Assembly (NCBI RefSeq): GCF_050920415.1
Contig: NZ_CP169309.1
Strand: one strand, 5' to 3'
DNA from: Escherichia coli
GTDB taxonomy: Bacteria > Pseudomonadota > Gammaproteobacteria > Enterobacterales > Enterobacteriaceae
DNA length: 64,000 nucleotides
The notes below the pieces were generated by a model, which was given only the letters and a program-made list of their open reading frames with translations, was not told the origin of the DNA and searched no databases. Within the stretch, counting starts at the first letter, position 1, and each line of letters begins with the position of its first letter. A program made the translations under genes and the position numbers. Positions 42,926-59,454 of this stretch are shown here, in pieces.

Positions 42926-44284
<1,359 letters not shown>

Positions 44285-44320
44285 TTAATTAACTGATGAT
44301 GAGCCTGGATTTCCGCTCTC

Positions 44321-44357
44321 ACTGAATTTTTATGCAAAATAAATGAGTTTTCATTTA
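44321..44357. promoter_or_regulatory. Candidate tandem ARG boxes (ArgR operator) upstream of argG
   Basis: actgaatttttatgcaaa and ataaatgagttttcattt resemble the 18-bp ARG box palindrome (TNTGAAT-AT-rich-ATTCANW), 50-90 bp upstream of the argG start. Confidence 0.5.
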
Positions 44358-44494
44358 ATCATCTTTTATCGGTGACAGGAAGAGTTTAGTGTGTTTTTTG
44401 TAAAATAATGCGCTTAAGGAGGAGCAGTAGAGGGCAAAAGTATTCGACAAACGAAAGTGAACTGGATATTCATTCACGCGATTAGCAATAAATG

Positions 44495-44524
44495 TTGACA
44501 AAATGTGGCGTGGATCACTATAAT
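44495..44524 (+). promoter_or_regulatory. Candidate upstream promoter of the metY-nusA-infB operon
   Basis: TTGACA-N18-TATAAT, both hexamers consensus. Confidence 0.5.
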
Positions 44525-44570
44525 GCCTGCAGATTTTACGTCCCGTCTCGGTACACCAAATCCCAGCAGT

Positions 44571-44601
44571 GTTTGCATTTTTTACCCAAAACGAGTAGAA
44601 T
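44571..44601 (+). promoter_or_regulatory. Candidate proximal metY promoter
   Basis: TTGCAT-N17-TAGAAT ending ~15 nt before the tRNA 5' end. Confidence 0.55.
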
Positions 44602-44616
44602 TTGCCACGTTTCAGG

Positions 44617-44693
<77 letters not shown>

Positions 44694-44815
44694 CTTTCCC
44701 TTAGAGTCCTTTTTCAAATATACTGTGAAGACTTCGGCCTTCGTAGTGGGATTTGAAAAAATCCTTCTGGAAAGTGCTCCAGACCGCAGTTGCGGTTATA
44801 GGGTTCAGTTATATA

Positions 44816-44840
44816 AAGCCCCGATTTATCGGGGTTTTTT
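44816..44840 (+). terminator. Rho-independent (partial) terminator between metY and rimP
   Basis: gccccgat-tt-atcggggt followed by TTTTTT. Confidence 0.8.
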
Positions 44841-44899
44841 GTTATCTGACTACAGAATAACTGGGCTTTAGGCCCTTTTTTTATGTCTTGGGGGTGGGC

Positions 44900-45352
44900 T
44901 TGTCCACATTAGAGCAAAAATTAACAGAGATGATTACTGCGCCAGTTGAGGCCCTGGGTTTTGAACTGGTTGGCATCGAGTTTATTCGCGGTCGCACATC
45001 CACACTGCGCATCTATATTGATAGTGAAGATGGCATCAATGTTGATGATTGTGCTGATGTGAGCCACCAGGTAAGTGCTGTGCTGGATGTCGAAGATCCC
45101 ATCACCGTTGCTTATAACCTGGAAGTCTCCTCACCGGGTCTCGATCGCCCACTGTTCACGGCTGAACACTACGCCCGTTTCGTCGGAGAAGAGGTGACTC
45201 TGGTTCTCCGTATGGCGGTACAAAACCGTCGTAAATGGCAGGGCGTTATCAAAGCGGTAGACGGTGAAATGATCACAGTTACCGTCGAAGGTAAAGATGA
45301 AGTGTTCGCGCTGAGTAATATCCAGAAGGCGAACCTGGTTCCCCACTTTTAA
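44900..45352 (+). CDS. rimP: Ribosome maturation factor RimP
   Basis: Start inferred at TTG 44900 ([21 protein letters not shown]...) giving 150 aa; the track ORF starts 12 nt upstream. Confidence 0.85.
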
Positions 45353-45379
45353 TAGTCTGGATGAGGTGAAAAGCCCGCG

Positions 45380-46867
<1,488 letters not shown>

Positions 46868-46891
46868 TAAACTGTAGCAGGAAGGAACAGC

Positions 46892-49564
46892 ATGACAGAT
46901 GTAACGATTAAAACGCTGGCCGCAGAGCGACAGACCTCCGTGGAACGCCTGGTACAGCAATTTGCTGATGCAGGTATCCGGAAGTCTGCTGACGACTCTG
47001 TGTCCGCACAAGAGAAACAGACTTTAATTGACCACCTGAATCAGAAAAATTCAGGCCCGGACAAATTAACGCTGCAACGTAAAACCCGCAGCACCCTTAA
47101 CATTCCTGGTACCGGTGGAAAAAGCAAATCGGTACAAATCGAAGTCCGCAAGAAACGCACCTTTGTGAAACGCGATCCGCAAGAGGCTGAACGCCTTGCT
47201 GCGGAAGAGCAGGCGCAGCGTGAAGCGGAAGAGCAAGCCCGTCGTGAGGCAGAAGAATCGGCCAAACGCGAGGCGCAACAAAAAGCTGAACGTGAGGCCG
47301 CAGAACAAGCTAAGCGTGAAGCCGCTGAACAAGCGAAACGTGAAGCTGCGGAAAAAGACAAAGTGAGCAATCAACAAGACGATATGACTAAAAACGCCCA
47401 GGCTGAAAAAGCCCGCCGTGAGCAGGAAGCTGCAGAGCTCAAGCGTAAAGCTGAAGAAGAAGCGCGTCGTAAACTCGAAGAAGAAGCACGTCGCGTTGCT
47501 GAAGAAGCACGTCGTATGGCGGAAGAAAACAAATGGACTGATAACGCGGAACCGACTGAAGATTCCAGCGATTATCACGTTACTACTTCTCAACATGCTC
47601 GCCAGGCAGAAGACGAAAGCGATCGTGAAGTCGAAGGCGGCCGTGGCCGTGGTCGTAACGCGAAAGCAGCGCGTCCGAAGAAAGGCAACAAACACTCTGA
47701 ATCAAAAGCTGATCGTGAAGAAGCACGCGCAGCAGTACGTGGCGGTAAAGGCGGAAAACGTAAAGGTTCTTCGCTGCAGCAAGGCTTCCAGAAGCCAGCT
47801 CAGGCCGTTAACCGTGACGTTGTGATTGGCGAAACCATCACCGTTGGTGAACTGGCGAACAAGATGGCGGTTAAAGGTTCTCAGGTCATCAAAGCGATGA
47901 TGAAACTGGGCGCAATGGCAACCATCAACCAGGTTATCGATCAGGAAACCGCACAGCTGGTTGCTGAAGAGATGGGCCACAAGGTTATCCTGCGTCGTGA
48001 AAACGAGCTGGAAGAAGCGGTAATGAGCGACCGTGACACAGGTGCTGCGGCTGAACCGCGCGCGCCGGTTGTGACCATCATGGGTCACGTTGACCACGGT
48101 AAAACCTCTTTGCTGGACTACATTCGTTCAACGAAAGTGGCCTCTGGCGAAGCGGGCGGCATTACCCAGCACATTGGTGCATACCACGTTGAAACTGAAA
48201 ACGGCATGATCACCTTCCTGGACACCCCGGGGCACGCCGCGTTTACTTCAATGCGTGCACGTGGTGCGCAGGCAACGGACATCGTAGTCCTGGTTGTTGC
48301 TGCCGACGACGGCGTAATGCCGCAGACCATCGAAGCAATTCAGCACGCGAAAGCGGCAGGCGTGCCGGTTGTGGTTGCAGTGAACAAGATCGACAAACCA
48401 GAAGCCGATCCAGATCGCGTTAAGAACGAACTCTCCCAGTACGGCATCCTGCCGGAAGAGTGGGGCGGTGAAAGCCAGTTCGTACACGTGTCTGCGAAAG
48501 CAGGTACCGGTATCGATGAACTGCTGGACGCTATCCTGTTGCAGGCAGAAGTTCTGGAACTGAAAGCGGTACGTAAAGGTATGGCGAGCGGTGCGGTTAT
48601 CGAATCCTTCCTCGATAAAGGTCGTGGTCCGGTTGCTACCGTTCTGGTACGTGAAGGTACTCTGCACAAGGGCGACATCGTTCTGTGTGGTTTCGAATAC
48701 GGTCGTGTTCGCGCAATGCGTAACGAAATGGGTCAGGAAGTGCTGGAAGCAGGTCCGTCCATTCCAGTTGAAATCCTTGGCTTGTCCGGTGTTCCGGCAG
48801 CGGGTGACGAAGTTACCGTAGTGCGTGACGAGAAGAAAGCACGTGAAGTTGCACTGTATCGTCAGGGCAAATTCCGTGAAGTTAAACTGGCACGTCAGCA
48901 GAAATCGAAACTCGAGAACATGTTCGCTAACATGACCGAAGGCGAAGTTCACGAAGTGAACATCGTTCTGAAGGCAGACGTTCAGGGTTCCGTGGAAGCG
49001 ATCTCCGACTCCTTGCTGAAACTGTCTACTGACGAAGTTAAAGTGAAGATCATCGGTTCTGGCGTAGGTGGTATCACCGAAACCGACGCTACCCTGGCTG
49101 CGGCGTCCAACGCCATCCTGGTTGGTTTCAACGTACGTGCTGATGCCTCTGCACGTAAAGTGATTGAAGCGGAAAGCCTGGATCTGCGTTACTACTCCGT
49201 CATCTATAACCTGATCGACGAAGTGAAAGCGGCGATGAGCGGTATGCTGTCTCCGGAACTGAAACAGCAGATTATCGGTCTGGCGGAAGTTCGTGATGTG
49301 TTCAAATCACCGAAATTTGGTGCCATCGCAGGTTGTATGGTTACTGAAGGTGTGGTTAAACGTCACAATCCGATCCGCGTTCTGCGCGACAACGTGGTTA
49401 TCTACGAAGGCGAGCTGGAGTCCCTGCGCCGCTTCAAAGATGACGTTAACGAAGTCCGTAACGGTATGGAATGTGGTATCGGCGTTAAGAACTACAACGA
49501 CGTCCGCACTGGCGATGTGATCGAAGTATTCGAAATCATCGAGATCCAACGTACCATCGCTTAA
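46892..49564 (+). CDS. infB: Translation initiation factor IF-2
   Basis: 890-aa ORF; Glu/Ala/Arg-rich repetitive N-terminal region and GTPase G-domain (GHVDHGKTS). Confidence 0.97.
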
Positions 49565-49581
49565 GGTTTTTAGGGTTCTAT

Positions 49582-49653
49582 GCGGGATAAGGCGTTTACG
49601 CCGCATCCGGCATGGATTGCCTGATGCGACGCTGGCGCGTCTTATCAGGCTAC
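49582..49653. repeat. Pair of REP (BIME-like) palindromic units in the infB-rbfA spacer
   Basis: gcgggataaggcgtttacgccgcatccggca and gcctgatgcgacgctggcgcgtcttatcaggc match the REP consensus. Confidence 0.7.
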
Positions 49654-49686
49654 GTGAACAGCCCTTCTAACTGAAATTAATTTTAA

Positions 49687-49711
49687 AAAGGGGCTAACAG
49701 CCCCTTTTTTG
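49687..49711 (+). terminator. Terminator-like hairpin immediately upstream of the rbfA ribosome-binding site
   Basis: aaaaaggggct-aac-agcccctttttt. Confidence 0.6.
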
Positions 49712-49726
49712 TCAGGAGAATTTATT

Positions 49727-50128
49727 ATGGCGAAAGAATTTGGTCGCCCGCAGCGCGTAGCGCAGGAAATGCAAAAAGAGATCGCTCTCATCCTGCAACG
49801 CGAAATTAAAGATCCTCGTCTGGGCATGATGACCACCGTTTCCGGTGTCGAAATGTCTCGTGACCTGGCGTATGCAAAAGTATATGTGACGTTCCTTAAC
49901 GACAAAGATGAAGACGCGGTTAAAGCGGGCATCAAAGCGTTGCAGGAAGCTTCTGGTTTCATCCGCAGCCTGCTGGGGAAAGCGATGCGCCTGCGTATCG
50001 TGCCGGAACTGACCTTCTTCTACGACAACTCTCTGGTTGAAGGGATGCGCATGTCAAACCTGGTGACCAGCGTGGTCAAACATGACGAAGAACGTCGTGT
50101 TAACCCGGACGACAGCAAGGAGGACTAA
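49727..50128 (+). CDS. rbfA: Ribosome-binding factor A
   Basis: ATG at 49727 ([23 protein letters not shown]...) gives 133 aa. Confidence 0.95.
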
Positions 50129-51072
50129 TGAGTCGTCCTCGTCGTCGCGGTCGCGACATTAACGGCGTTTTGTTGCTGGATAAACCGCAGGGGATGTCCA
50201 GCAACGATGCGCTGCAAAAAGTGAAACGGATTTATAACGCCAACCGTGCCGGGCATACCGGTGCGCTGGACCCGCTGGCGACCGGCATGCTGCCGATTTG
50301 CCTCGGGGAAGCCACCAAGTTTTCCCAGTATCTGCTGGACTCTGACAAACGCTATCGGGTGATTGCGCGTCTTGGACAGCGTACCGATACTTCTGATGCC
50401 GACGGACAAATCGTTGAAGAACGTCCGGTAACCTTTAGTGCAGAGCAACTGGCGGCGGCACTGGATACTTTCCGTGGTGATATCGAACAGATCCCATCGA
50501 TGTATTCAGCACTGAAATACCAGGGCAAAAAACTGTACGAATATGCGCGTCAGGGAATTGAAGTCCCGCGTGAAGCACGCCCGATTACCGTTTATGAATT
50601 GCTGTTTATTCGCCACGAAGGCAATGAACTGGAGCTGGAAATTCACTGCTCAAAAGGCACCTATATCCGCACTATCATTGACGATCTCGGCGAAAAACTC
50701 GGCTGTGGCGCGCATGTTATTTACCTGCGTCGCCTGGCTGTAAGTAAATATCCGGTTGAACGGATGGTGACTCTGGAACATCTGCGTGAACTGGTTGAGC
50801 AAGCCGAGCAGCAGGATATTCCGGCAGCGAAGTTACTTGATCCATTACTGATGCCAATGGACAGTCCAGCTTCGGACTATCCGGTGGTGAATCTTCCGTT
50901 AACGTCTTCTGTTTACTTCAAAAATGGTAACCCGGTTCGTACATCCGGTGCGCCGCTGGAAGGACTGGTTCGCGTTACAGAAGGTGAGAATGGCAAGTTT
51001 ATCGGTATGGGCGAAATTGACGATGAAGGCCGCGTTGCGCCTCGTCGCCTGGTGGTTGAATACCCGGCGTAA
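50128..51072 (+). CDS. truB: tRNA pseudouridine(55) synthase
   Basis: 314-aa ORF with catalytic motif [12 protein letters not shown]; start overlaps the rbfA stop. Confidence 0.96.
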
Positions 51073-51124
51073 TGTTAACCGTCTTGCGATAACAAGTCGC
51101 TACGAGTAGAATACTGCCGCTTAA

Positions 51125-51490
<366 letters not shown>

Positions 51491-51504
51491 TTCTTGCGAG
51501 TTTC

Positions 51505-51534
51505 AGAAAAGGGGCCTGAGTGGCCCCTTTTTTC
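51505..51534 (+). terminator. Rho-independent terminator of rpsO
   Basis: aaaaggggcc-tgagt-ggcccctttttt. Confidence 0.85.
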
Positions 51535-51735
51535 AAACTGACGGCAGCAATTCACTGGAAACTAATGTATTGTTGCTATGAATGATCTTCCGTTGCAGAG
51601 GTTCGCGCGGCTAATGAGAGGCTTTACCCACATTGGGCTGGGTTAGGGTTGTCATTAGTCGCGAGGATGCGCAGAAGATCGGGTATTAACACCAGTGCCG
51701 TAAGGTGCTGTCTAAGAAAGAGAAAGGATATTACA

Positions 51736-53871
51736 TTGCTTAATCCGATCGTTCGTAAATTCCAGTACGGCCAACACACCGTGACTCTGGAAACCGGCAT
51801 GATGGCTCGTCAGGCTACTGCCGCTGTTATGGTTAGCATGGATGACACCGCGGTATTCGTTACCGTTGTTGGTCAGAAAAAAGCCAAACCAGGTCAGGAC
51901 TTCTTCCCGCTGACCGTTAACTATCAGGAGCGTACCTACGCTGCTGGTCGTATCCCGGGTAGCTTCTTCCGTCGTGAAGGCCGCCCAAGCGAAGGTGAAA
52001 CGCTGATCGCGCGTCTGATTGACCGCCCTATTCGCCCGCTGTTCCCGGAAGGCTTCGTCAACGAAGTTCAGGTTATCGCCACCGTGGTTTCTGTTAACCC
52101 GCAGGTTAACCCGGATATCGTTGCGATGATTGGTGCTTCCGCAGCACTTTCTCTGTCTGGTATTCCGTTCAATGGTCCGATTGGTGCTGCCCGCGTAGGT
52201 TACATCAATGACCAGTACGTACTGAACCCGACTCAGGACGAGCTGAAAGAGAGCAAACTGGACCTGGTTGTTGCCGGTACAGAAGCTGCCGTGCTGATGG
52301 TTGAATCTGAAGCTGAACTGCTGAGCGAAGACCAGATGCTGGGCGCAGTGGTGTTCGGTCATGAACAACAGCAGGTTGTTATTCAGAACATCAATGAACT
52401 GGTGAAAGAAGCCGGTAAACCGCGTTGGGATTGGCAGCCGGAGCCGGTAAACGAAGCGCTGAACGCGCGCGTTGCTGCGCTGGCTGAAGCTCGTCTGAGC
52501 GATGCTTATCGCATCACCGACAAACAAGAGCGTTATGCGCAGGTTGATGTCATCAAATCTGAAACCATCGCGACGCTGCTTGCTGAAGACGAAACCCTGG
52601 ACGAAAACGAACTGGGTGAAATTCTGCACGCTATCGAGAAAAATGTTGTTCGTAGCCGCGTACTGGCAGGCGAACCGCGTATCGACGGTCGTGAAAAAGA
52701 TATGATCCGTGGTCTGGATGTGCGTACTGGCGTGCTGCCGCGTACTCACGGTTCTGCGTTGTTCACCCGTGGTGAAACGCAGGCACTGGTTACCGCAACG
52801 CTGGGTACTGCACGTGACGCACAGGTTCTTGATGAACTGATGGGCGAACGTACTGACACCTTCCTGTTCCACTACAACTTCCCTCCGTATTCCGTAGGTG
52901 AAACTGGCATGGTCGGTTCTCCGAAGCGTCGTGAAATTGGTCACGGTCGTCTGGCGAAGCGCGGCGTGCTGGCAGTAATGCCGGATATGGACAAATTCCC
53001 GTACACCGTACGTGTAGTGTCTGAAATTACCGAATCCAACGGTTCTTCTTCTATGGCTTCCGTGTGCGGTGCGTCTCTGGCGCTGATGGACGCAGGTGTG
53101 CCAATCAAAGCTGCTGTTGCGGGTATCGCAATGGGTCTGGTGAAAGAAGGCGACAACTACGTTGTACTGTCTGACATTTTGGGCGACGAAGATCACCTGG
53201 GCGATATGGACTTCAAAGTTGCGGGTTCCCGCGACGGTATCTCTGCACTGCAGATGGATATCAAAATTGAAGGTATCACCAAAGAGATCATGCAGGTTGC
53301 GCTGAATCAAGCTAAAGGTGCGCGTCTGCATATCCTGGGCGTCATGGAGCAGGCGATCAACGCGCCGCGTGGTGATATCTCTGAGTTTGCACCGCGTATC
53401 CATACCATCAAGATCAATCCGGACAAGATCAAAGACGTTATCGGTAAAGGCGGTTCTGTTATCCGTGCCCTGACCGAAGAAACTGGCACCACCATCGAAA
53501 TCGAAGATGACGGTACTGTGAAGATCGCAGCGACCGACGGCGAGAAAGCGAAACACGCTATTCGTCGTATCGAAGAAATCACCGCAGAAATCGAAGTGGG
53601 TCGCGTCTACAATGGTAAAGTGACCCGTATCGTTGACTTTGGCGCGTTTGTTGCCATCGGCGGCGGTAAAGAAGGTCTGGTCCACATCTCTCAAATCGCC
53701 GACAAGCGTGTTGAGAAAGTGACCGACTACCTGCAGATGGGTCAGGAAGTACCGGTGAAAGTTCTGGAAGTCGATCGCCAGGGCCGTATCCGTCTGAGCA
53801 TTAAAGAAGCGACTGAGCAGTCTCAACCTGCTGCAGCACCGGAAGCTCCGGCTGCTGAACAGGGCGAGTAA
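51736..53871 (+). CDS. pnp: Polynucleotide phosphorylase
   Basis: Start inferred at TTG 51736 ([21 protein letters not shown]...) giving 711 aa; two RNase PH domains, KH and S1 domains. Confidence 0.95.
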
Positions 53872-53879
53872 GGTTGCCA

Positions 53880-53907
53880 TTTGCCCTCCGCTGCGGCGGG
53901 GGGCTTT
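53880..53907 (+). terminator. GC-rich imperfect hairpin with T-run downstream of pnp
   Basis: gccctccgctgcggcggggggctttt. Confidence 0.5.
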
Positions 53908-53979
53908 TAACCGGGCAGGACGCCTTGTTAGCAACCGGGAACAGGACGTTCATTCAACCGTGGTCTTCGGGAGTGGGAA

Positions 53980-54864
53980 ATGAAGCCTTTTTTGCGCTGG
54001 TGTTTCGTTGCGACAGCACTTACGCTTGCAGGATGCAGTAATACTTCCTGGCGTAAAAGTGAAGTCCTCGCGGTACCATTGCAACCGACTTTGCAGCAGG
54101 AAGTGATTCTGGCACGTATGGAACAAATCCTTGCCAGTCGGGCTTTAACCGATGACGAACGCGCACAGCTTTTATATGAGCGCGGAGTGTTGTATGATAG
54201 TCTCGGTCTGAGGGCATTAGCGCGTAACGATTTTTCGCAAGCGCTGGCAATCCGACCGGATATGCCTGAAGTATTCAATTACTTAGGCATATATTTAACG
54301 CAGGCAGGCAATTTTGATGCTGCCTATGAAGCGTTTGATTCTGTACTTGAGCTTGATCCAACTTACAACTACGCGCACTTGAATCGCGGGATCGCATTAT
54401 ATTACGGCGGTCGTGACAAGTTAGCGCAAGATGATCTGCTGGCGTTTTATCAAGACGATCCCAATGATCCTTTCCGTAGTCTGTGGCTTTATCTCGCCGA
54501 GCAGAAGCTCGATGAGAAGCAGGCTAAAGAAGTGTTAAAACAGCACTTCGAAAAATCGGATAAGGAGCAGTGGGGATGGAACATTGTCGAGTTCTACCTG
54601 GGCAACATTAGCGAACAAACGTTAATGGAAAGGCTCAAGGCGGACGCAACGGATAACACCTCGCTCGCTGAGCATCTCAGTGAAACCAACTTCTATTTAG
54701 GTAAGTACTACCTAAGTCTGGGGGATTTGGACAGCGCCACGGCACTGTTCAAACTGGCGGTTGCCAACAACGTTCATAACTTTGTTGAGCACCGATACGC
54801 ATTGTTGGAATTATCGCTCCTGGGCCAGGACCAAGATGACCTGGCAGAATCGGACCAGCAATAG
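53980..54864 (+). CDS. nlpI: Outer-membrane TPR lipoprotein NlpI
   Basis: 294-aa ORF with lipobox LAGC and TPR repeats. Confidence 0.96.
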
Positions 54865-54969
54865 CTGACGTACACATCAGCCCGTAATCTTTTTTGATTG
54901 CCATCACCTTAACGGGTGAGGGCGTTGTTGTTCGTTAATACACCTACTTTGAGCCGGTTCACACTTTTC

Positions 54970-55050
54970 AATGAAAATTGCTGATCAATTTCATGATGAG
55001 TTATGTAGACTGGCCGCCATTAATTTTGAGGCACACGTACTACATGGCTG
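54970..55050 (+). CDS. yrbN: Small protein YrbN (26 aa)
   Basis: ATG 54970 to TGA 55050 reads [26 protein letters not shown]; its stop overlaps the deaD start codon. Confidence 0.7.
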
Positions 55051-56933
55051 AATTCGAAACCACTTTTGCAGATCTGGGCCTGAAGGCTCCTATCCTTGAA
55101 GCCCTTAACGATCTGGGTTACGAAAAACCATCTCCAATTCAGGCAGAGTGTATTCCACATCTGCTGAATGGCCGCGACGTTCTGGGTATGGCCCAGACGG
55201 GGAGCGGAAAAACTGCAGCATTCTCTTTACCTCTGCTGCAAAATCTTGATCCTGAGCTGAAAGCACCACAGATTCTGGTGCTGGCACCGACCCGCGAACT
55301 GGCGGTACAGGTTGCTGAGGCAATGACGGATTTCTCTAAACACATGCGCGGCGTAAACGTGGTTGCCCTGTACGGCGGCCAGCGTTATGACGTGCAATTA
55401 CGCGCCCTGCGTCAGGGGCCGCAGATCGTTGTCGGTACTCCTGGCCGTCTGCTGGATCACCTGAAACGTGGCACTCTGGACCTCTCTAAACTGAGCGGTC
55501 TGGTTCTGGATGAAGCTGACGAAATGCTGCGCATGGGCTTCATCGAAGACGTTGAAACCATTATGGCGCAGATCCCGGAAGGTCATCAGACCGCTCTGTT
55601 CTCTGCAACTATGCCGGAAGCGATTCGTCGCATTACCCGCCGCTTTATGAAAGAGCCGCAGGAAGTACGCATTCAGTCCAGCGTGACTACCCGTCCTGAC
55701 ATCAGCCAGAGCTACTGGACTGTGTGGGGGATGCGTAAAAACGAAGCGCTGGTACGTTTCCTGGAAGCGGAAGATTTTGATGCGGCGATTATCTTCGTTC
55801 GTACTAAAAACGCGACTTTGGAAGTGGCAGAAGCTCTTGAGCGTAACGGCTACAACAGCGCTGCACTGAACGGTGACATGAACCAGGCGCTGCGTGAGCA
55901 GACTCTGGAACGCCTGAAAGATGGTCGTCTGGATATCCTGATTGCGACCGACGTTGCGGCCCGTGGCCTGGACGTTGAGCGTATCAGCCTGGTAGTTAAC
56001 TACGATATCCCGATGGATTCTGAGTCTTACGTTCACCGTATTGGTCGTACCGGCCGTGCGGGGCGTGCTGGTCGCGCACTGCTGTTCGTTGAGAACCGCG
56101 AGCGTCGTCTGCTGCGCAACATTGAACGCACTATGAAGCTGACCATTCCGGAAGTAGAACTGCCGAACGCAGAGCTGCTGGGCAAACGCCGTCTGGAAAA
56201 ATTCGCCGCTAAAGTACAGCAGCAGCTGGAAAGCAGCGATCTGGATCAATACCGTGCACTGCTGAGCAAAATTCAGCCGACTGCAGAAGGTGAAGAGCTG
56301 GATCTCGAAACTCTGGCAGCCGCACTGCTGAAAATGGCACAGGGTGAACGTACTCTGATCGTGCCGCCAGATGCGCCGATGCGTCCGAAACGTGAATTCC
56401 GTGACCGTGATGACCGTGGTCCGCGCGATCGTAACGACCGTGGCCCGCGTGGCGGCCGTGAAGATCGTCCGCGTCGTGAACGTCGTGATGTTGGCGATAT
56501 GCAGCTGTACCGTATTGAAGTGGGCCGCGATGATGGTGTTGAAGTTCGTCATATCGTTGGCGCGATTGCTAACGAAGGCGACATCAGCAGCCGTTACATC
56601 GGTAACATCAAGCTGTTTGCTTCTCACTCCACCATCGAACTGCCGAAAGGTATGCCGGGTGAAGTGCTGCAACACTTTACGCGTACTCGCATTCTCAACA
56701 AGCCGATGAACATGCAGCTGCTGGGCGATGCACAGCCGCATACTGGTGGTGAGCGTCGTGGTGGTGGTCGTGGTTTCGGTGGCGAACGTCGTGAAGGCGG
56801 TCGTAACTTCAGCGGTGAGCGCCGTGAAGGTGGTCGTGGTGATGGTCGTCGTTTCAGCGGCGAACGTCGTGAAGGCCGCGCGCCGCGTCGTGATGACTCT
56901 ACTGGTCGTCGTCGTTTCGGTGGTGATGCGTAA
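55044..56933 (+). CDS. deaD: Cold-shock DEAD-box ATP-dependent RNA helicase DeaD (CsdA)
   Basis: ATG at 55044 ([21 protein letters not shown]...) gives 629 aa; Q-motif, Walker [13 protein letters not shown] box, C-terminal Arg/Gly-rich repeats. Confidence 0.96.
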
Positions 56934-56973
56934 TTCGCTGACCCGCAGAACTCTGCCGTAAAGTAAAATATAC

Positions 56974-57005
56974 AGCCCCGATTTTAACAATCGGGGCTTT
57001 TTTTC
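56974..57005 (+). terminator. Rho-independent terminator of deaD
   Basis: agccccgatt-ttaaca-atcggggct followed by TTTTTTT. Confidence 0.85.
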
Positions 57006-57011
57006 TGTCTT

Positions 57012-57035
57012 TTGTACTCGTGTACTGGTACAGTG
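57012..57035. promoter_or_regulatory. Candidate TrpR operator in the mtr promoter
   Basis: tgtactcgtgtactggtacagt contains tandem GTACT half-sites resembling the trp operator, ~55 bp upstream of mtr. Confidence 0.55.
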
Positions 57036-57084
57036 CAATGCATAACAACGCAGTCGCACTATTTTTCACTGGAGAGAAGCCCTC

Positions 57085-58329
57085 ATGGCAACACTAACCA
57101 CCACCCAAACGTCACCGTCGCTGCTTGGCGGCGTGGTGATTATCGGCGGCACCATTATTGGCGCAGGGATGTTTTCTCTGCCTGTGGTCATGTCCGGGGC
57201 GTGGTTCTTCTGGTCAATGGCGGCGCTGATCTTTACCTGGTTCTGTATGCTGCATTCCGGCTTGATGATTCTGGAAGCTAACCTGAATTATCGAATCGGT
57301 TCGAGTTTTGACACCATAACCAAAGATTTGCTAGGCAAAGGCTGGAACGTGGTCAACGGCATTTCCATTGCCTTTGTGCTCTACATCCTGACTTACGCCT
57401 ATATTTCTGCCAGCGGTTCGATTCTGCATCACACCTTCGCGGAGATGTCGCTGAATGTTCCGGCACGAGCTGCAGGTTTTGGTTTTGCGCTACTGGTGGC
57501 GTTTGTGGTGTGGTTGAGCACCAAAGCCGTCAGCCGGATGACGGCGATTGTGCTGGGGGCGAAAGTTATTACCTTCTTCCTCACTTTCGGCAGTTTGCTG
57601 GGGCATGTGCAGCCTGCGACATTGTTTAACGTCGCGGAAAGCAATGCGTCTTATGCACCGTATCTGTTGATGACCCTGCCGTTCTGTCTGGCCTCATTTG
57701 GTTATCACGGTAACGTGCCGAGCCTGATGAAGTATTATGGCAAAGATCCGAAAACTATCGTGAAATGCCTGGTCTACGGTACGCTGATGGCGCTGGCGCT
57801 GTATACCATCTGGTTGCTGGCGACGATGGGCAACATCCCTCGTCCGGAGTTTATCGGCATCGCCGAGAAGGGCGGTAATATTGATGTGCTGGTACAGGCG
57901 TTAAGCGGCGTGCTGAACAGTCGTAGTCTGGATCTGCTACTGGTCGTGTTCTCAAACTTTGCGGTAGCGAGTTCGTTCCTCGGCGTAACGCTGGGTTTGT
58001 TTGACTATCTGGCAGATCTGTTTGGTTTTGACGACTCTGCCCTGGGCCGCTTTAAAACGGCGTTGCTGACCTTTGCACCGCCTGTCGTGGGTGGCCTGCT
58101 GTTCCCGAACGGATTCCTGTACGCTATTGGTTATGCTGGCTTAGCGGCTACCATCTGGGCGGCAATTGTTCCGGCGCTGTTGGCCCGCGCATCGCGTAAA
58201 CGCTTTGGCAGCCCGAAATTCCGTGTCTGGGGCGGCAAGCCGATGATTGCACTGATTCTGGTGTTTGGCGTTGGCAACGCACTGGTGCATATTTTATCGA
58301 GCTTTAATTTGCTGCCGGTGTATCAGTAA
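57085..58329 (+). CDS. mtr: Tryptophan-specific permease Mtr
   Basis: 414-aa polytopic membrane ORF; recognised as Mtr (HAAAP family). Confidence 0.96.
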
Positions 58330-58339
58330 TCAGCGGTGC

Positions 58340-58432
58340 CTTATCCGACATTTCTGCTGCCTACACAATGCCTGATGTGCTTCGCTTATCAGGCCTAGGT
58401 AGGACAGCGTTGCCAGCTCGGATAAGGCTTCC
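58340..58432. repeat. REP/BIME palindromic cluster between convergent mtr and yhbW
   Basis: gcctgatgtgcttcgcttatcaggcctaggtagg plus flanking partial REP units (gccttatccgac..., ...cggataaggc). Confidence 0.65.
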
Positions 58433-58446
58433 CACGTTAAAACACA

Positions 58447-59454
58447 CTATCCCAGTAACTCTTCCTTAACATCCATCGCCAGCTCAAACGAATGCAGGCG
58501 CGCCTGGTGATCGAAAATCTGCCCGTTAACCATAATCTCATCCGCGTCGGTTTCGCGCAGGATCGACTGCAAACCATGACGCACTTTCGCTTTATCACCC
58601 ACCAGCGACATATTCAGCGCCTGCTGCACGCCATACTGCTCAGACGGTGACCAGAACTGATCCATATTTTGAATCGGTGGCGGCAGTTGCCCGGTTTCAC
58701 CGCGGCGCAGCTTCACAAAGGCTTGCTGCATTGAGGTAAACAGAAATTCAGCGTCGCGGTTGCTGTCGGCGGCGATAATATTGATGCACACCATCGCGTA
58801 CGGTTTCTCCAGCCGCGCTGACGGTTTGAAGTTACTGCGATAAAGATGCAGCGCCTGGAACAGCATATCCGGTGCGAAGTGTGAGGCAAACGCGAACGGC
58901 AGACCAAGCTGCGCCGCCAGTTGTGCACTGTAAAGACTGGAGCCTAATAACCACACGGGGATTTTCTCGCCATAGCCCGGTACAGGGCGCACATGCGGAT
59001 TGGGATCACGGGCGTCAAACCAGTCCACCAGCTCCGCGACATCGCGGGGGAAATTATCAATATCGCCGCTCATATGGCGACGTAGTGCCATCATTGTCCG
59101 TTGGTCACTACCTGGCGCACGACCCAGCCCCAAATCGATTCGCCCCGGATAGAGCGTATTGAGCGTACCGAACTGTTCGGCAATCACCAACGGTGAGTGG
59201 TTTGGTAACATCACGCCGCCAGACCCCAGATGCAGCGTGGTGGTATTTGCCGCCAGATAGCCAATCAATACTGATGTTGCAGCACTGGCAATGCCAGTCA
59301 TATTGTGGTGTTCCGCCAGCCAGTAGCGATGATAGCCGCGCTTTTCAGCCAGACGGGCGAGGTCGAGAGAGTGGGAGAACGCTTCTCGCGCTGAAGAACC
59401 TTCGGGGATGGGGGCCAGATCGAGTAGCGAAAACGCAATGGTTTTATCAGTCAT
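58447..59454 (-). CDS. yhbW: Luciferase-like (LLM-class) flavin-dependent oxidoreductase YhbW
   Basis: 335-aa ORF; recognised as YhbW. Confidence 0.93.

Follow-up and report, generated by a model that had tools for sequence, protein, structure and literature searches.

ER/K single alpha-helix (SAH) domains, such as those of myosin VI/X and caldesmon, typically follow a 4- or 7-residue pattern, and RG/RGG-rich tails are found in the eukaryotic helicases Ded1/DDX3X, DDX4, and LAF-1. In E. coli IF2, residues 1–90 of Domain I bind NusA, and a long linker connects this domain with the core (PMC12297416). Residues 51–294 have been described as an intrinsically disordered or flexible linker, with a low-confidence AlphaFold3 model, and the N-terminal region drives a cold-induced, RNA-dependent phase separation that is lost in the beta isoform (PMC11838494). 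The IF2 isoforms also affect recovery from DNA damage (PMC3334882). Condensates of the full-length DEAD-box helicase DeaD/CsdA have been observed both in vitro and in cells (PMC12758526; bioRxiv 10.1101/2024.10.04.616694).

The window analyzed here, 64,000 nucleotides of Escherichia coli contig NZ_CP169309.1 (assembly GCF_050920415.1), contains repetitive stretches in infB and deaD. These encode low-complexity segments, ordinary and already known and catalogued, in the cold-shock proteins IF2 and DeaD (a helicase) of E. coli:

46892–49564, + strand: infB, translation initiation factor IF-2, 890 aa (open reading frame, translation, and Pfam; annotated in a genome 100% identical over 15 kb)
47198–47362, + strand: infB repeat block A, 24-nt (8-aa) units, IF2 residues 103–157 (Tandem Repeats Finder; within AF2 helix 96–158, pLDDT 81–91)
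47444–47527, + strand: infB repeat block B, 24- and 21-nt units, EEEARRK(L)/EEARR(V/M)A, IF2 residues 185–212 (Tandem Repeats Finder; within AF2 helix 166–215)
55044–56933, + strand: deaD (csdA), cold-shock DEAD-box RNA helicase, 629 aa (open reading frame, translation, annotation, and Pfam)
56745–56930, + strand: C-terminal Arg/Gly-rich tail of DeaD, residues 568–629 (Tandem Repeats Finder, period 33; Pfam PF12343)

The gene order rimP-nusA-infB-rbfA-truB places infB in the nusA-infB-rbfA operon context of bacterial IF-2, here in the enterobacterial long form. The IF2_N, IF2_assoc, GTP_EFTU, and IF-2 domains follow in order, every Pfam match lying above its curated cut-off, and across the 390 N-terminal residues aligned the protein differs from that of K-12 by one substitution, A269S. 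DeaD matches all five of its Pfam families (DEAD, Helicase_C, DeaD_dimer, DbpA, and DeaD_C) above cut-off; its mechanically called open reading frame begins with a TTG at 54978, and the annotated start is the ATG at 55044. IF2 and DeaD are cold-shock proteins of one gene cluster, and the low-complexity parts of both lie in proteins or regions that publications have linked to RNA condensates.

Tandem Repeats Finder detected period-24 arrays in infB at 47201–47256, 47283–47357, and 47444–47507, a period-21 array at 47480–47527, and a period-33 array in deaD at 56745–56840, with a unit-to-unit match of only 73–85%. About four 33-nt (11-aa) units occupy positions 56748–56879 of the deaD tail, and the translation shows the repeat motif units in DeaD residues 568–612. 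All of the arrays fall within the stretches to which an earlier, sequence-only reading of this DNA had ascribed tandem nucleotide periodicity, in frame inside known proteins; the arrays and the shuffle scores given below bear out the periodicity, the annotated genes and Pfam matches bear out its setting, and the protein motifs then quoted were recovered on translating both genes. That reading had also held that the repeats were neither CRISPR nor satellite, which agrees with units that are contiguous and without spacers. A CRISPR array or other non-coding repeat element would share with these stretches only a superficial repeat length of 24–33 nt, and we give this explanation no credence, since the units run head-to-tail, without spacers, in frame inside conserved annotated genes; an Rfam scan found no RNA family in either the infB or the deaD stretch.

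The periodicity was assessed against 2000 codon shuffles preserving composition and period 3. For infB, the lag of 24 nt gave z = 7.2, with 0 of the 2000 shuffles as high, and the corresponding amino-acid lag of 8 gave z = 8.8; block A (47198–47362) reached z = 7.9 at lag 24, and block B z = 3.6 at lag 21 and z = 3.0 at lag 24. The whole deaD tail is more weakly periodic than infB (z = 3.3 at lag 33 nt; z = 4.3 at amino-acid lag 11), and its R/G core alone showed no significant nucleotide periodicity after lag correction (135 of 2000 shuffles). Controls of the same length from the DeaD helicase core and the IF2 G domain showed no periodicity. Where residues one unit apart are the same, they share their codon in 17 of 33 cases in infB (14.5 ± 2.5 by synonymous permutation, P = 0.21) and in 11 of 18 cases in the deaD tail (12.1 by permutation). 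Codon identity between units is thus no higher than under synonymous permutation, which implies that the DNA periodicity is a by-product of the protein periodicity and not of recent DNA duplication.

Two long antisense frames cover these regions:

47066–47695, − strand: antisense ORF of 209 aa opposite the infB repeats (in the codon-aligned antisense frame, between a sense-strand TTA at 47066 and TCA at 47702)
55398–57059, − strand: 553-aa antisense ORF over most of deaD (codon-aligned antisense frame)

The sequence-only reading was right that such frames exist but attributed them to the repeats. Stops in this frame can arise only from sense TTA, CTA, or TCA codons, of which deaD contains two (codons 62 and 119). 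The codon-aligned antisense frame runs without a stop over 496 codons of nusA, 719 of pnp, and 511 of deaD, but over just 55–68 codons of the weakly biased nlpI and mtr. The frames are therefore long because these three codons are nearly absent, an effect of codon usage that is gene-wide in nusA, pnp, and deaD. That the two ORFs encode real overlapping proteins is suggested by their being long and open, and by two of the three antisense frames being open over the deaD tail; however, their translations are low-complexity F/S/L/T-rich strings, neither matches a Pfam family, and the same frame is open gene-wide elsewhere, so that such coding is exceedingly improbable. As candidate genes they were rejected, being Pfam-negative and explained by the gene-wide codon-usage effect.

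The repeat units differ in number among natural strains, and several of the resulting alleles are associated with short direct repeats in the present sequence:

47201–47235, + strand: 11-nt direct repeat GCGGAAGAGCA at 47201 and 47225, offset 24 (strain M15 duplicates the AEEQAQRE unit here)
47217–47322, + strand: 10-nt direct repeat AGCGTGAAGC at 47217 and 47313, offset 96 (ends of a 96-nt (32-aa) in-frame deletion in strain N68)
47453–47493, + strand: direct repeat GAAGAAGAAGC(g/a)CGTCG at 47453 and 47477, offset 24 (ends of the infB −24-nt allele)
47480–47514, + strand: 14-nt direct repeat GAAGAAGCACGTCG at 47480 and 47501, offset 21 (longest exact repeat of the infB region; ends of the −21-nt allele)
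56781–56876, + strand: 18-nt direct repeat GGCGAACGTCGTGAAGGC at 56781 and 56859, offset 78 (longest exact repeat of the deaD tail)

By BLAST identity and coverage bands combined with junction probes, counts that are affected by clonal sampling, repeat length variants of infB occur in about 46 of 5,425 complete E. coli genomes (0.85%, 29 of these being one clone) and those of the deaD tail in at least 182 of 5,426 (3.4%); 99% of genomes share one infB length. The 90–95% identity band held 45 genomes for the infB repeat region versus 0 for an equal-length G-domain region. Identity bands alone mislead, as split pieces are joined and deletions hidden; hence variant-allele queries and short junction probes were used, and cluster members, the variant queries, and the probes together served to reconstruct the infB allele spectrum. 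A concatenated two-junction probe produced a chance 29-nt match in ordinary genomes, and carriers were separated from these by query coordinates.

The infB alleles recovered are +24, +48, −24 (at two sites), −21, and −96 nt, and those of deaD are +12, −33, −78, and −132 nt. The −24-nt allele (882-aa IF2, P0010) is carried by 29 clonal genomes (Esc1-29 and CNR20191027), the −21-nt allele (883-aa IF2, P0006) by 4 complete-genome records, and the deaD +12-nt allele by 158 of 5,426 genomes; one gain allele is a perfect 24-nt duplicate. The deaD −78-nt junction, predicted from the 18-nt repeat before the search, was found in 21 of 5,426 genomes, in two of which deaD measures 1812 nt (603 aa). Deletions with aligned junctions end at direct repeats of 8 nt (deaD −132) to 18 nt. 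All of the recovered alleles of both genes are in frame, with no frameshifting allele among them, as would be expected if purifying selection acts against frameshifts in infB and deaD. The sequence-only reading had called these regions “prone” to in-frame copy-number variation between strains: unit-sized, in-frame variants do exist, but “prone” applies only relative to the rest of each gene, given frequencies of ~0.85% for infB, mostly one clone, and ~3.4% for deaD.

Detectable arrays, unit-sized gains and losses in natural strains, the perfect 24-nt duplicate, and the number of genomes reached by the deaD +12-nt allele are what would be expected if the stretches had arisen by recent tandem duplication of DNA (as a minisatellite, VNTR, or contingency locus), with fast copy-number change tuning or switching the proteins. 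The modest unit match and the permutation-level codon sharing argue against such an origin, as do longest exact repeats of 10–18 nt, the single infB length of nearly all genomes with a single clone as the largest variant group, the absence of frameshift alleles among those seen, and a periodic architecture conserved across Gammaproteobacteria; we regard recent duplication as very improbable. By the preferred account, the periodic low-complexity segments would be kept by selection on the protein, the DNA periodicity being a side effect. The repeat units would be old and diverged at synonymous sites, leaving exact direct repeats of 8–18 nt, and occasional slippage or microhomology-mediated recombination between these may add or remove whole units, giving rise to the rare length alleles. 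We hold with high confidence to the identity of the two segments and to this DNA-level account of protein-borne periodicity with rare in-frame unit gain and loss between short direct repeats.

Two internal start codons of infB lie between repeat blocks A and B, a point that the earlier reading had missed:

47363–47365, + strand: GTG codon 158, internal in-frame start of IF2-beta (IF2-2) (read in the sequence; matches nucleotides 472–474 of infB)
47384–47386, + strand: ATG codon 165, internal in-frame start of IF2-gamma (IF2-3) (read in the sequence; matches nucleotides 493–495)

The IF2-beta start codon is altered by the published g474c mutation and the IF2-gamma start by t494c (PMC3334882), and GTG-158 and ATG-165 of this infB occupy the positions of these known starts. 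Block B is present in all three IF2 isoforms; with the internal starts in the break between the predicted helices, block A belongs to the alpha isoform only. The location of both starts exactly between the blocks, together with a predicted centroid fold that is mostly unpaired around them, might suggest that the purine-rich repeats act mainly as mRNA, as an unstructured standby for internal initiation at GTG-158/ATG-165, with the protein periodicity secondary. However, 47303–47425 has an unremarkable folding energy (z = −0.96; matched by 28 of 200 shuffles), both starts are upstream of block B, the comparable DeaD repeat is without a known internal start, and across genera it is the amino-acid pattern that is conserved and not the codons. 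A main role as mRNA is accordingly improbable. An explanation of the internal starts by mRNA structure was rejected, the fold being ordinary.

At the protein level, IF2 residues ~97–213 are rich in Glu, Ala, Arg, Lys, and Gln; residues 97–213 contain 0 Gly or Pro, are 54% charged and ~27% Ala, and have 62 opposite-charge pairs at i/i+3 plus i/i+4, compared with 32.8 ± 4.4 in shuffled sequences (z = 6.6). The AF2 model (pTM 0.27) has helices at 96–158 and 166–215 with pLDDT 80–91 and a low-confidence break at 159–165, although AF2 tends to draw helices for E/R/K/A-rich sequence and the model alone does not establish a stable isolated helix. ATG-165 lies in this break. Full-length IF2 chains are present in PDB entries 3jcj, 3jcn, 5me0, 5me1, and 9h9h by sequence match, which does not show whether residues 97–213 are modeled. 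Among Gammaproteobacterial homologues, most of which were truncated, so that just those spanning the whole query were compared, the segment from R94 to DYH229 is mostly 136–142 aa long (range 127–164) and remains E/A/K/R/Q-rich and 8-periodic even at ~45% identity.

These properties are consistent with residues ~97–213 most likely forming two long, solvent-exposed, charged alpha-helices of ER/K type, of about 63 and 50 residues, which may serve as an extended linker between the NusA-binding subdomain (residues 1–90) and the ribosome-binding core. Both predicted helices fall inside the N-terminal region that, according to published work, promotes RNA-dependent condensation in the cold. A more specific proposal, which we put forward only tentatively, is that the region is not a generic disordered linker but a pair of semi-rigid ER/K-type helices acting as a molecular ruler for the reach from NusA (on RNA polymerase) to IF2 (on 30S), its combined length being kept near 136–142 residues across Gammaproteobacteria and its break being so positioned that a protein started internally lacks exactly the first helix. 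If so, the natural E. coli alleles (+8, +16, −7, −8, and −32 residues) would constitute a ready allelic series in which the coupling of transcription to translation and condensation in the cold could be studied. The cited IF2 literature (PMC12297416, PMC11838494, PMC3334882) does not describe the 8-residue periodicity, the prediction of two helices broken at the internal starts, or the natural length alleles.

DeaD residues 568–629 match PF12343, “DeaD helicase C-terminal disordered region,” over profile positions 1–62 of 62, and residues 567–629 are 32% Gly and 30% Arg with 4 Phe. Reading of the sequence identified one strict RGG and three GGR, with acidic residues in the unit. A PDB sequence search returned no solved chain that includes the tail, entry 5b88 stopping at about residue 564. 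To our knowledge, there is no arginine methylation in E. coli. The tail may act as a disordered auxiliary RNA-binding segment that promotes condensate formation. We give about even chances to the functional proposals of a helical tether in IF2 and an RNA-binding tail in DeaD.

For genome scanning the result is mainly a negative one: periodic stretches of this kind, and the shadow ORFs that go with them, need no flag as repeat elements or as overlapping genes, since they are to be expected from low-complexity protein segments and from strong codon bias in highly expressed genes. The survey also suggests that synonymous divergence between units keeps slippage rare in an essential gene, and the catalogue of natural in-frame length alleles, each bounded by a short direct repeat, offers possible material for structure-function work.

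With respect to known systems, infB and deaD resemble coding VNTRs and contingency loci (phase-variable simple-sequence repeats) in changing length by whole units between direct repeats. In contrast to these, their repeats are imperfect and synonymously diverged, and the variation is rare, always in frame, and without on/off switching. The DeaD tail is like PF12343 DeaD_C and the RG/RGG tails of other DEAD-box helicases (E. coli RhlE and SrmB, and eukaryotic) in being Arg/Gly-rich with interspersed Phe, in a protein that condenses, but it departs from a classical RGG box in the acidic residues of its unit and in having a single strict RGG plus three GGR. IF2 97–213 shares with SAH domains its length, its Gly/Pro-free, E/R/K-rich composition, the enrichment of opposite-charge pairs, and predicted helices of 63 and 50 residues; it differs from them in being richer in Ala and Gln, in its charged fraction of 54%, below that of a classical ER/K helix, in its 8-residue pattern, and in being called disordered in the literature. 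The closest described system is E. coli IF2 domains I–II itself, the flexible linker or disordered region with its alpha, beta, and gamma isoforms: the infB repeats of this window are that very region, with no difference in kind.

Tandem Repeats Finder (TRF) and codon shuffles confirm the repeat-like periodicity that the sequence-only reading had described in infB and deaD, which is strong in infB and modest in deaD. The TRF arrays are as follows:
47201-47256, infB, period 24
47283-47357, infB, period 24
47444-47507, infB, period 24
47480-47527, infB, period 21
56745-56840, deaD, period 33

In translation, IF2 residues 103-157 (block A, 47198-47362) form seven 8-residue units, residues 185-212 (block B, 47444-47527) the units EEEARRKL, EEEARRVA and EEARRMA, and DeaD residues 568-612 four 11-residue units. 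Against codons shuffled within each region, which preserves amino-acid and codon composition and period 3, infB scored z=7.2 at lag 24 nt (reached by 0/2000 shuffles) and z=8.8 at amino-acid lag 8, and the whole deaD tail z=3.3 at lag 33 nt and z=4.3 at amino-acid lag 11. Nucleotide periodicity in the deaD R/G core was not significant over all lags (135/2000 codon shuffles), and equal-length controls from the IF2 G domain and the DeaD helicase core showed no periodicity.

The periodicity is an old one, preserved at the level of the protein, because codon sharing is near its null, exact repeats are short and the pattern is conserved across genera; the nucleotide periodicity is therefore its consequence. 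For same-residue pairs one unit apart, with synonymous codons permuted among same-residue positions as the null, the codon was common to 17/33 pairs in block A (14.5 +/- 2.5 expected; P=0.21) and to 11/18 in the deaD tail (12.1 expected). Two identical EAAEQAKR peptides in IF2 differ at 4/8 codons in the window and at 5/8 in K-12, and exact direct repeats extend to no more than 10-14 nt in infB and 18 nt in deaD. An E/A/K/R/Q-rich, 8-periodic IF2 segment is found across Gammaproteobacteria, down to ~45% identity, with an R94-to-DYH229 distance of mostly 136-142 residues (range 127-164); Enterobacterales DeaD tails (77-107 residues) keep repeat units of the DeaD kind in varying number. That the repeats lie in frame inside known proteins, and are neither CRISPR nor satellite, holds: they are coding, and the absence of spacers between units rules out a CRISPR array. 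The imperfect, synonymously diverged units and low polymorphism speak strongly against a contingency locus or VNTR.

Other low-complexity stretches were seen in both proteins. DeaD residues 445-485 (56376-56498; 41 residues, 37% Arg, 20% Asp), a stretch between the dimerisation and RNA-binding domains that contains a DRGPR(D/G) repeat, had gone unmentioned in the sequence-only reading; a weak period-9 TRF signal lies just upstream (56365-56388). IF2 residues ~240-292 (47609-47770) are Gly/Arg/Lys-rich, with a period-18 TRF match at 47609-47645 and AF2 confidence <50.

We searched 5,426 complete E. coli genomes for length alleles. The 411-nt infB repeat window was present in 5,425, of which 45 fell in the 90-95% identity band, a signature of gapped alignment; a 411-nt G-domain control, though more divergent overall, had 0 genomes below 95% identity. 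The infB variants were recovered via cluster members, variant queries and junction probes. The alleles of the two genes are:
infB +24 nt, REAAEQAK duplicated (REAQQKAE in NR301), 8 genomes
infB +48 nt, AEEQAQRE and REAAEQAK both duplicated, 2 genomes
infB -24 nt, block A, REAAEQAK lost, at least 4 genomes
infB -96 nt, 32 residues lost, strain N68
infB -24 nt, block B, EEEARRKL lost, 29 genomes of one clone (Esc1-29 and CNR20191027)
infB -21 nt, EEARRVA lost, 4 records
deaD +12 nt, REGG duplicated, 158 genomes
deaD -33 nt, one unit lost, at least 1 complete genome
deaD -78 nt, 26 residues lost, 21 genomes
deaD -132 nt, 44 residues lost, 2 genomes

All are in frame and unit-sized changes dominate; the recovery of in-frame alleles alone is consistent with purifying selection against frameshifts. 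Where junctions were aligned, the deletions terminate in direct repeats between 8 nt (deaD -132) and 18 nt long, a pattern characteristic of replication slippage or microhomology-mediated deletion. The 18-nt direct repeat at 56781/56859 had led us to predict the deaD -78 allele ahead of the search that found it, and in two of its carriers deaD has 603 codons. The -26-aa DeaD allele stands under two protein accessions, from strains from China and Guinea-Bissau that are 1 nt apart over 336 nt. The suggested copy-number variation between strains is thus borne out insofar as in-frame, unit-sized alleles exist, but neither gene is hypervariable: infB variants total ~46 genomes (0.85%), mostly the single Esc1-29/CNR20191027 clone, and deaD variants at least 182 (3.4%). 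The 29 carriers of the block-B allele are near-identical (~5.1565 Mb each), so clonal sampling dominates the raw variant frequency.

Long open antisense frames are present as had been noted, but their cause is gene-wide codon usage and not the repeats. The following lie in the codon-aligned antisense frame, where stops are possible only opposite sense TTA, CTA or TCA:
45131-47011 (-), 626-aa ORF over nusA
47066-47695 (-), 209-aa ORF over the infB repeats
51712-53934 (-), 740-aa ORF over pnp
55398-57059 (-), 553-aa ORF over deaD

In nusA this frame runs without a stop for 496 codons, in pnp for 719 and in deaD for 511; these are highly expressed genes whose long antisense ORFs follow from their having only 0-3 TTA/CTA/TCA codons; we rejected these ORFs as genes, regarding them as shadow ORFs. 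In infB it is open for up to 352 codons away from the repeats, and in nlpI and mtr for only 55-68. No Pfam family matches the 209-aa or 553-aa ORF, and low complexity adds only a second open frame locally.

The 15 kb searched around the two genes (44000-59000) are 100% identical to Escherichia coli strain MFDS1022581, with the gene order argG, tRNA-Met, rimP, nusA, infB, rbfA, truB, rpsO, pnp, nlpI, yrbN, deaD, mtr. Selected genes, and Rfam matches above gathering score, are:
44617-44690, tRNA, annotated tRNA-Met (Rfam)
44782-44882, rimP leader (Rfam)
46892-49564, infB, 890 aa
49581-49651, naRNA4, just past the infB stop (Rfam)
51163-51277, ribosomal S15 leader (Rfam)
51506-51677 (-), sRNA SraG, antisense to the pnp start (Rfam)
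54971-55051, yrbN, small annotated gene, 26 aa (Pfam YrbN), with an 8-nt overlap at the deaD start codon
55044-56933, deaD from its annotated ATG, 629 aa

The mechanical deaD ORF begins upstream, at TTG 54978, and some database DeaD entries (650 aa) use an upstream start. Only 16/5,425 complete E. coli genomes reach >=99% identity over 44000-59000. Identity to K-12 is 99% in the infB repeat window. The G-domain window stands at 95-99% against nearly all genomes, only 2 genomes match the deaD tail at 100%, and UniRef carries this IF2 protein under a name taken from E. fergusonii (IF2_ESCF3). The infB-deaD region could be mosaic/recombinant, or simply belong to an uncommon lineage.

Pfam IF2_assoc (residues 56-94) precedes the infB repeats and the second IF2_N (residues 314-364) follows them; the repeats themselves are covered by no Pfam family. 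IF2 residues 97-213 contain 0 Gly/Pro and 54% charged residues, with i/i+3 and i/i+4 opposite-charge pairs strongly in excess (z=6.6), and AlphaFold2 (30-sequence alignment) predicts helices at 96-158 and 166-215 (pLDDT 80-91) parted by a low-confidence break at 159-165. This predicted break coincides with the internal start codons, previously mutated as g474c and t494c (PMC3334882):
47363-47365, Val-158, GTG, internal start of IF2-beta
47384-47386, Met-165, ATG, internal start of IF2-gamma

Block A is therefore present only in the alpha isoform and block B in all. IF2 Domain I, which binds NusA via residues 1-90, is attached through a "long flexible linker" (PMC12297416). In the cold, IF2 undergoes RNA-dependent phase separation driven by its N-terminal region, an ability that the beta isoform has lost; this region is termed disordered, yet predicted helices are noted with spectroscopic support cited (PMC11838494). 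We infer that the IF2 repeats may act as an extended charged-helix tether, the helix being predicted.

The DeaD tail is Pfam PF12343 (DeaD_C), a "C-terminal disordered region"; residues 567-629 are 32% Gly and 30% Arg, and no solved chain includes the tail (5b88 stops at ~residue 564). DeaD/CsdA condenses both in vitro and in cells (PMC12758526; bioRxiv 10.1101/2024.10.04.616694), and the tail may be the source of condensate behaviour or RNA binding.

Both features are already catalogued parts of well-studied proteins, namely the IF2 N-terminal region with its isoforms and Pfam DeaD_C, and the repeats will not surprise a specialist in either protein. The codon-level demonstration of protein origin, the allele catalogue with direct-repeat end points and the match of the predicted IF2 helix break with internal start codons are modest additions. 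By its sequence, the IF2 segment would qualify as an ER/K-type single helix.
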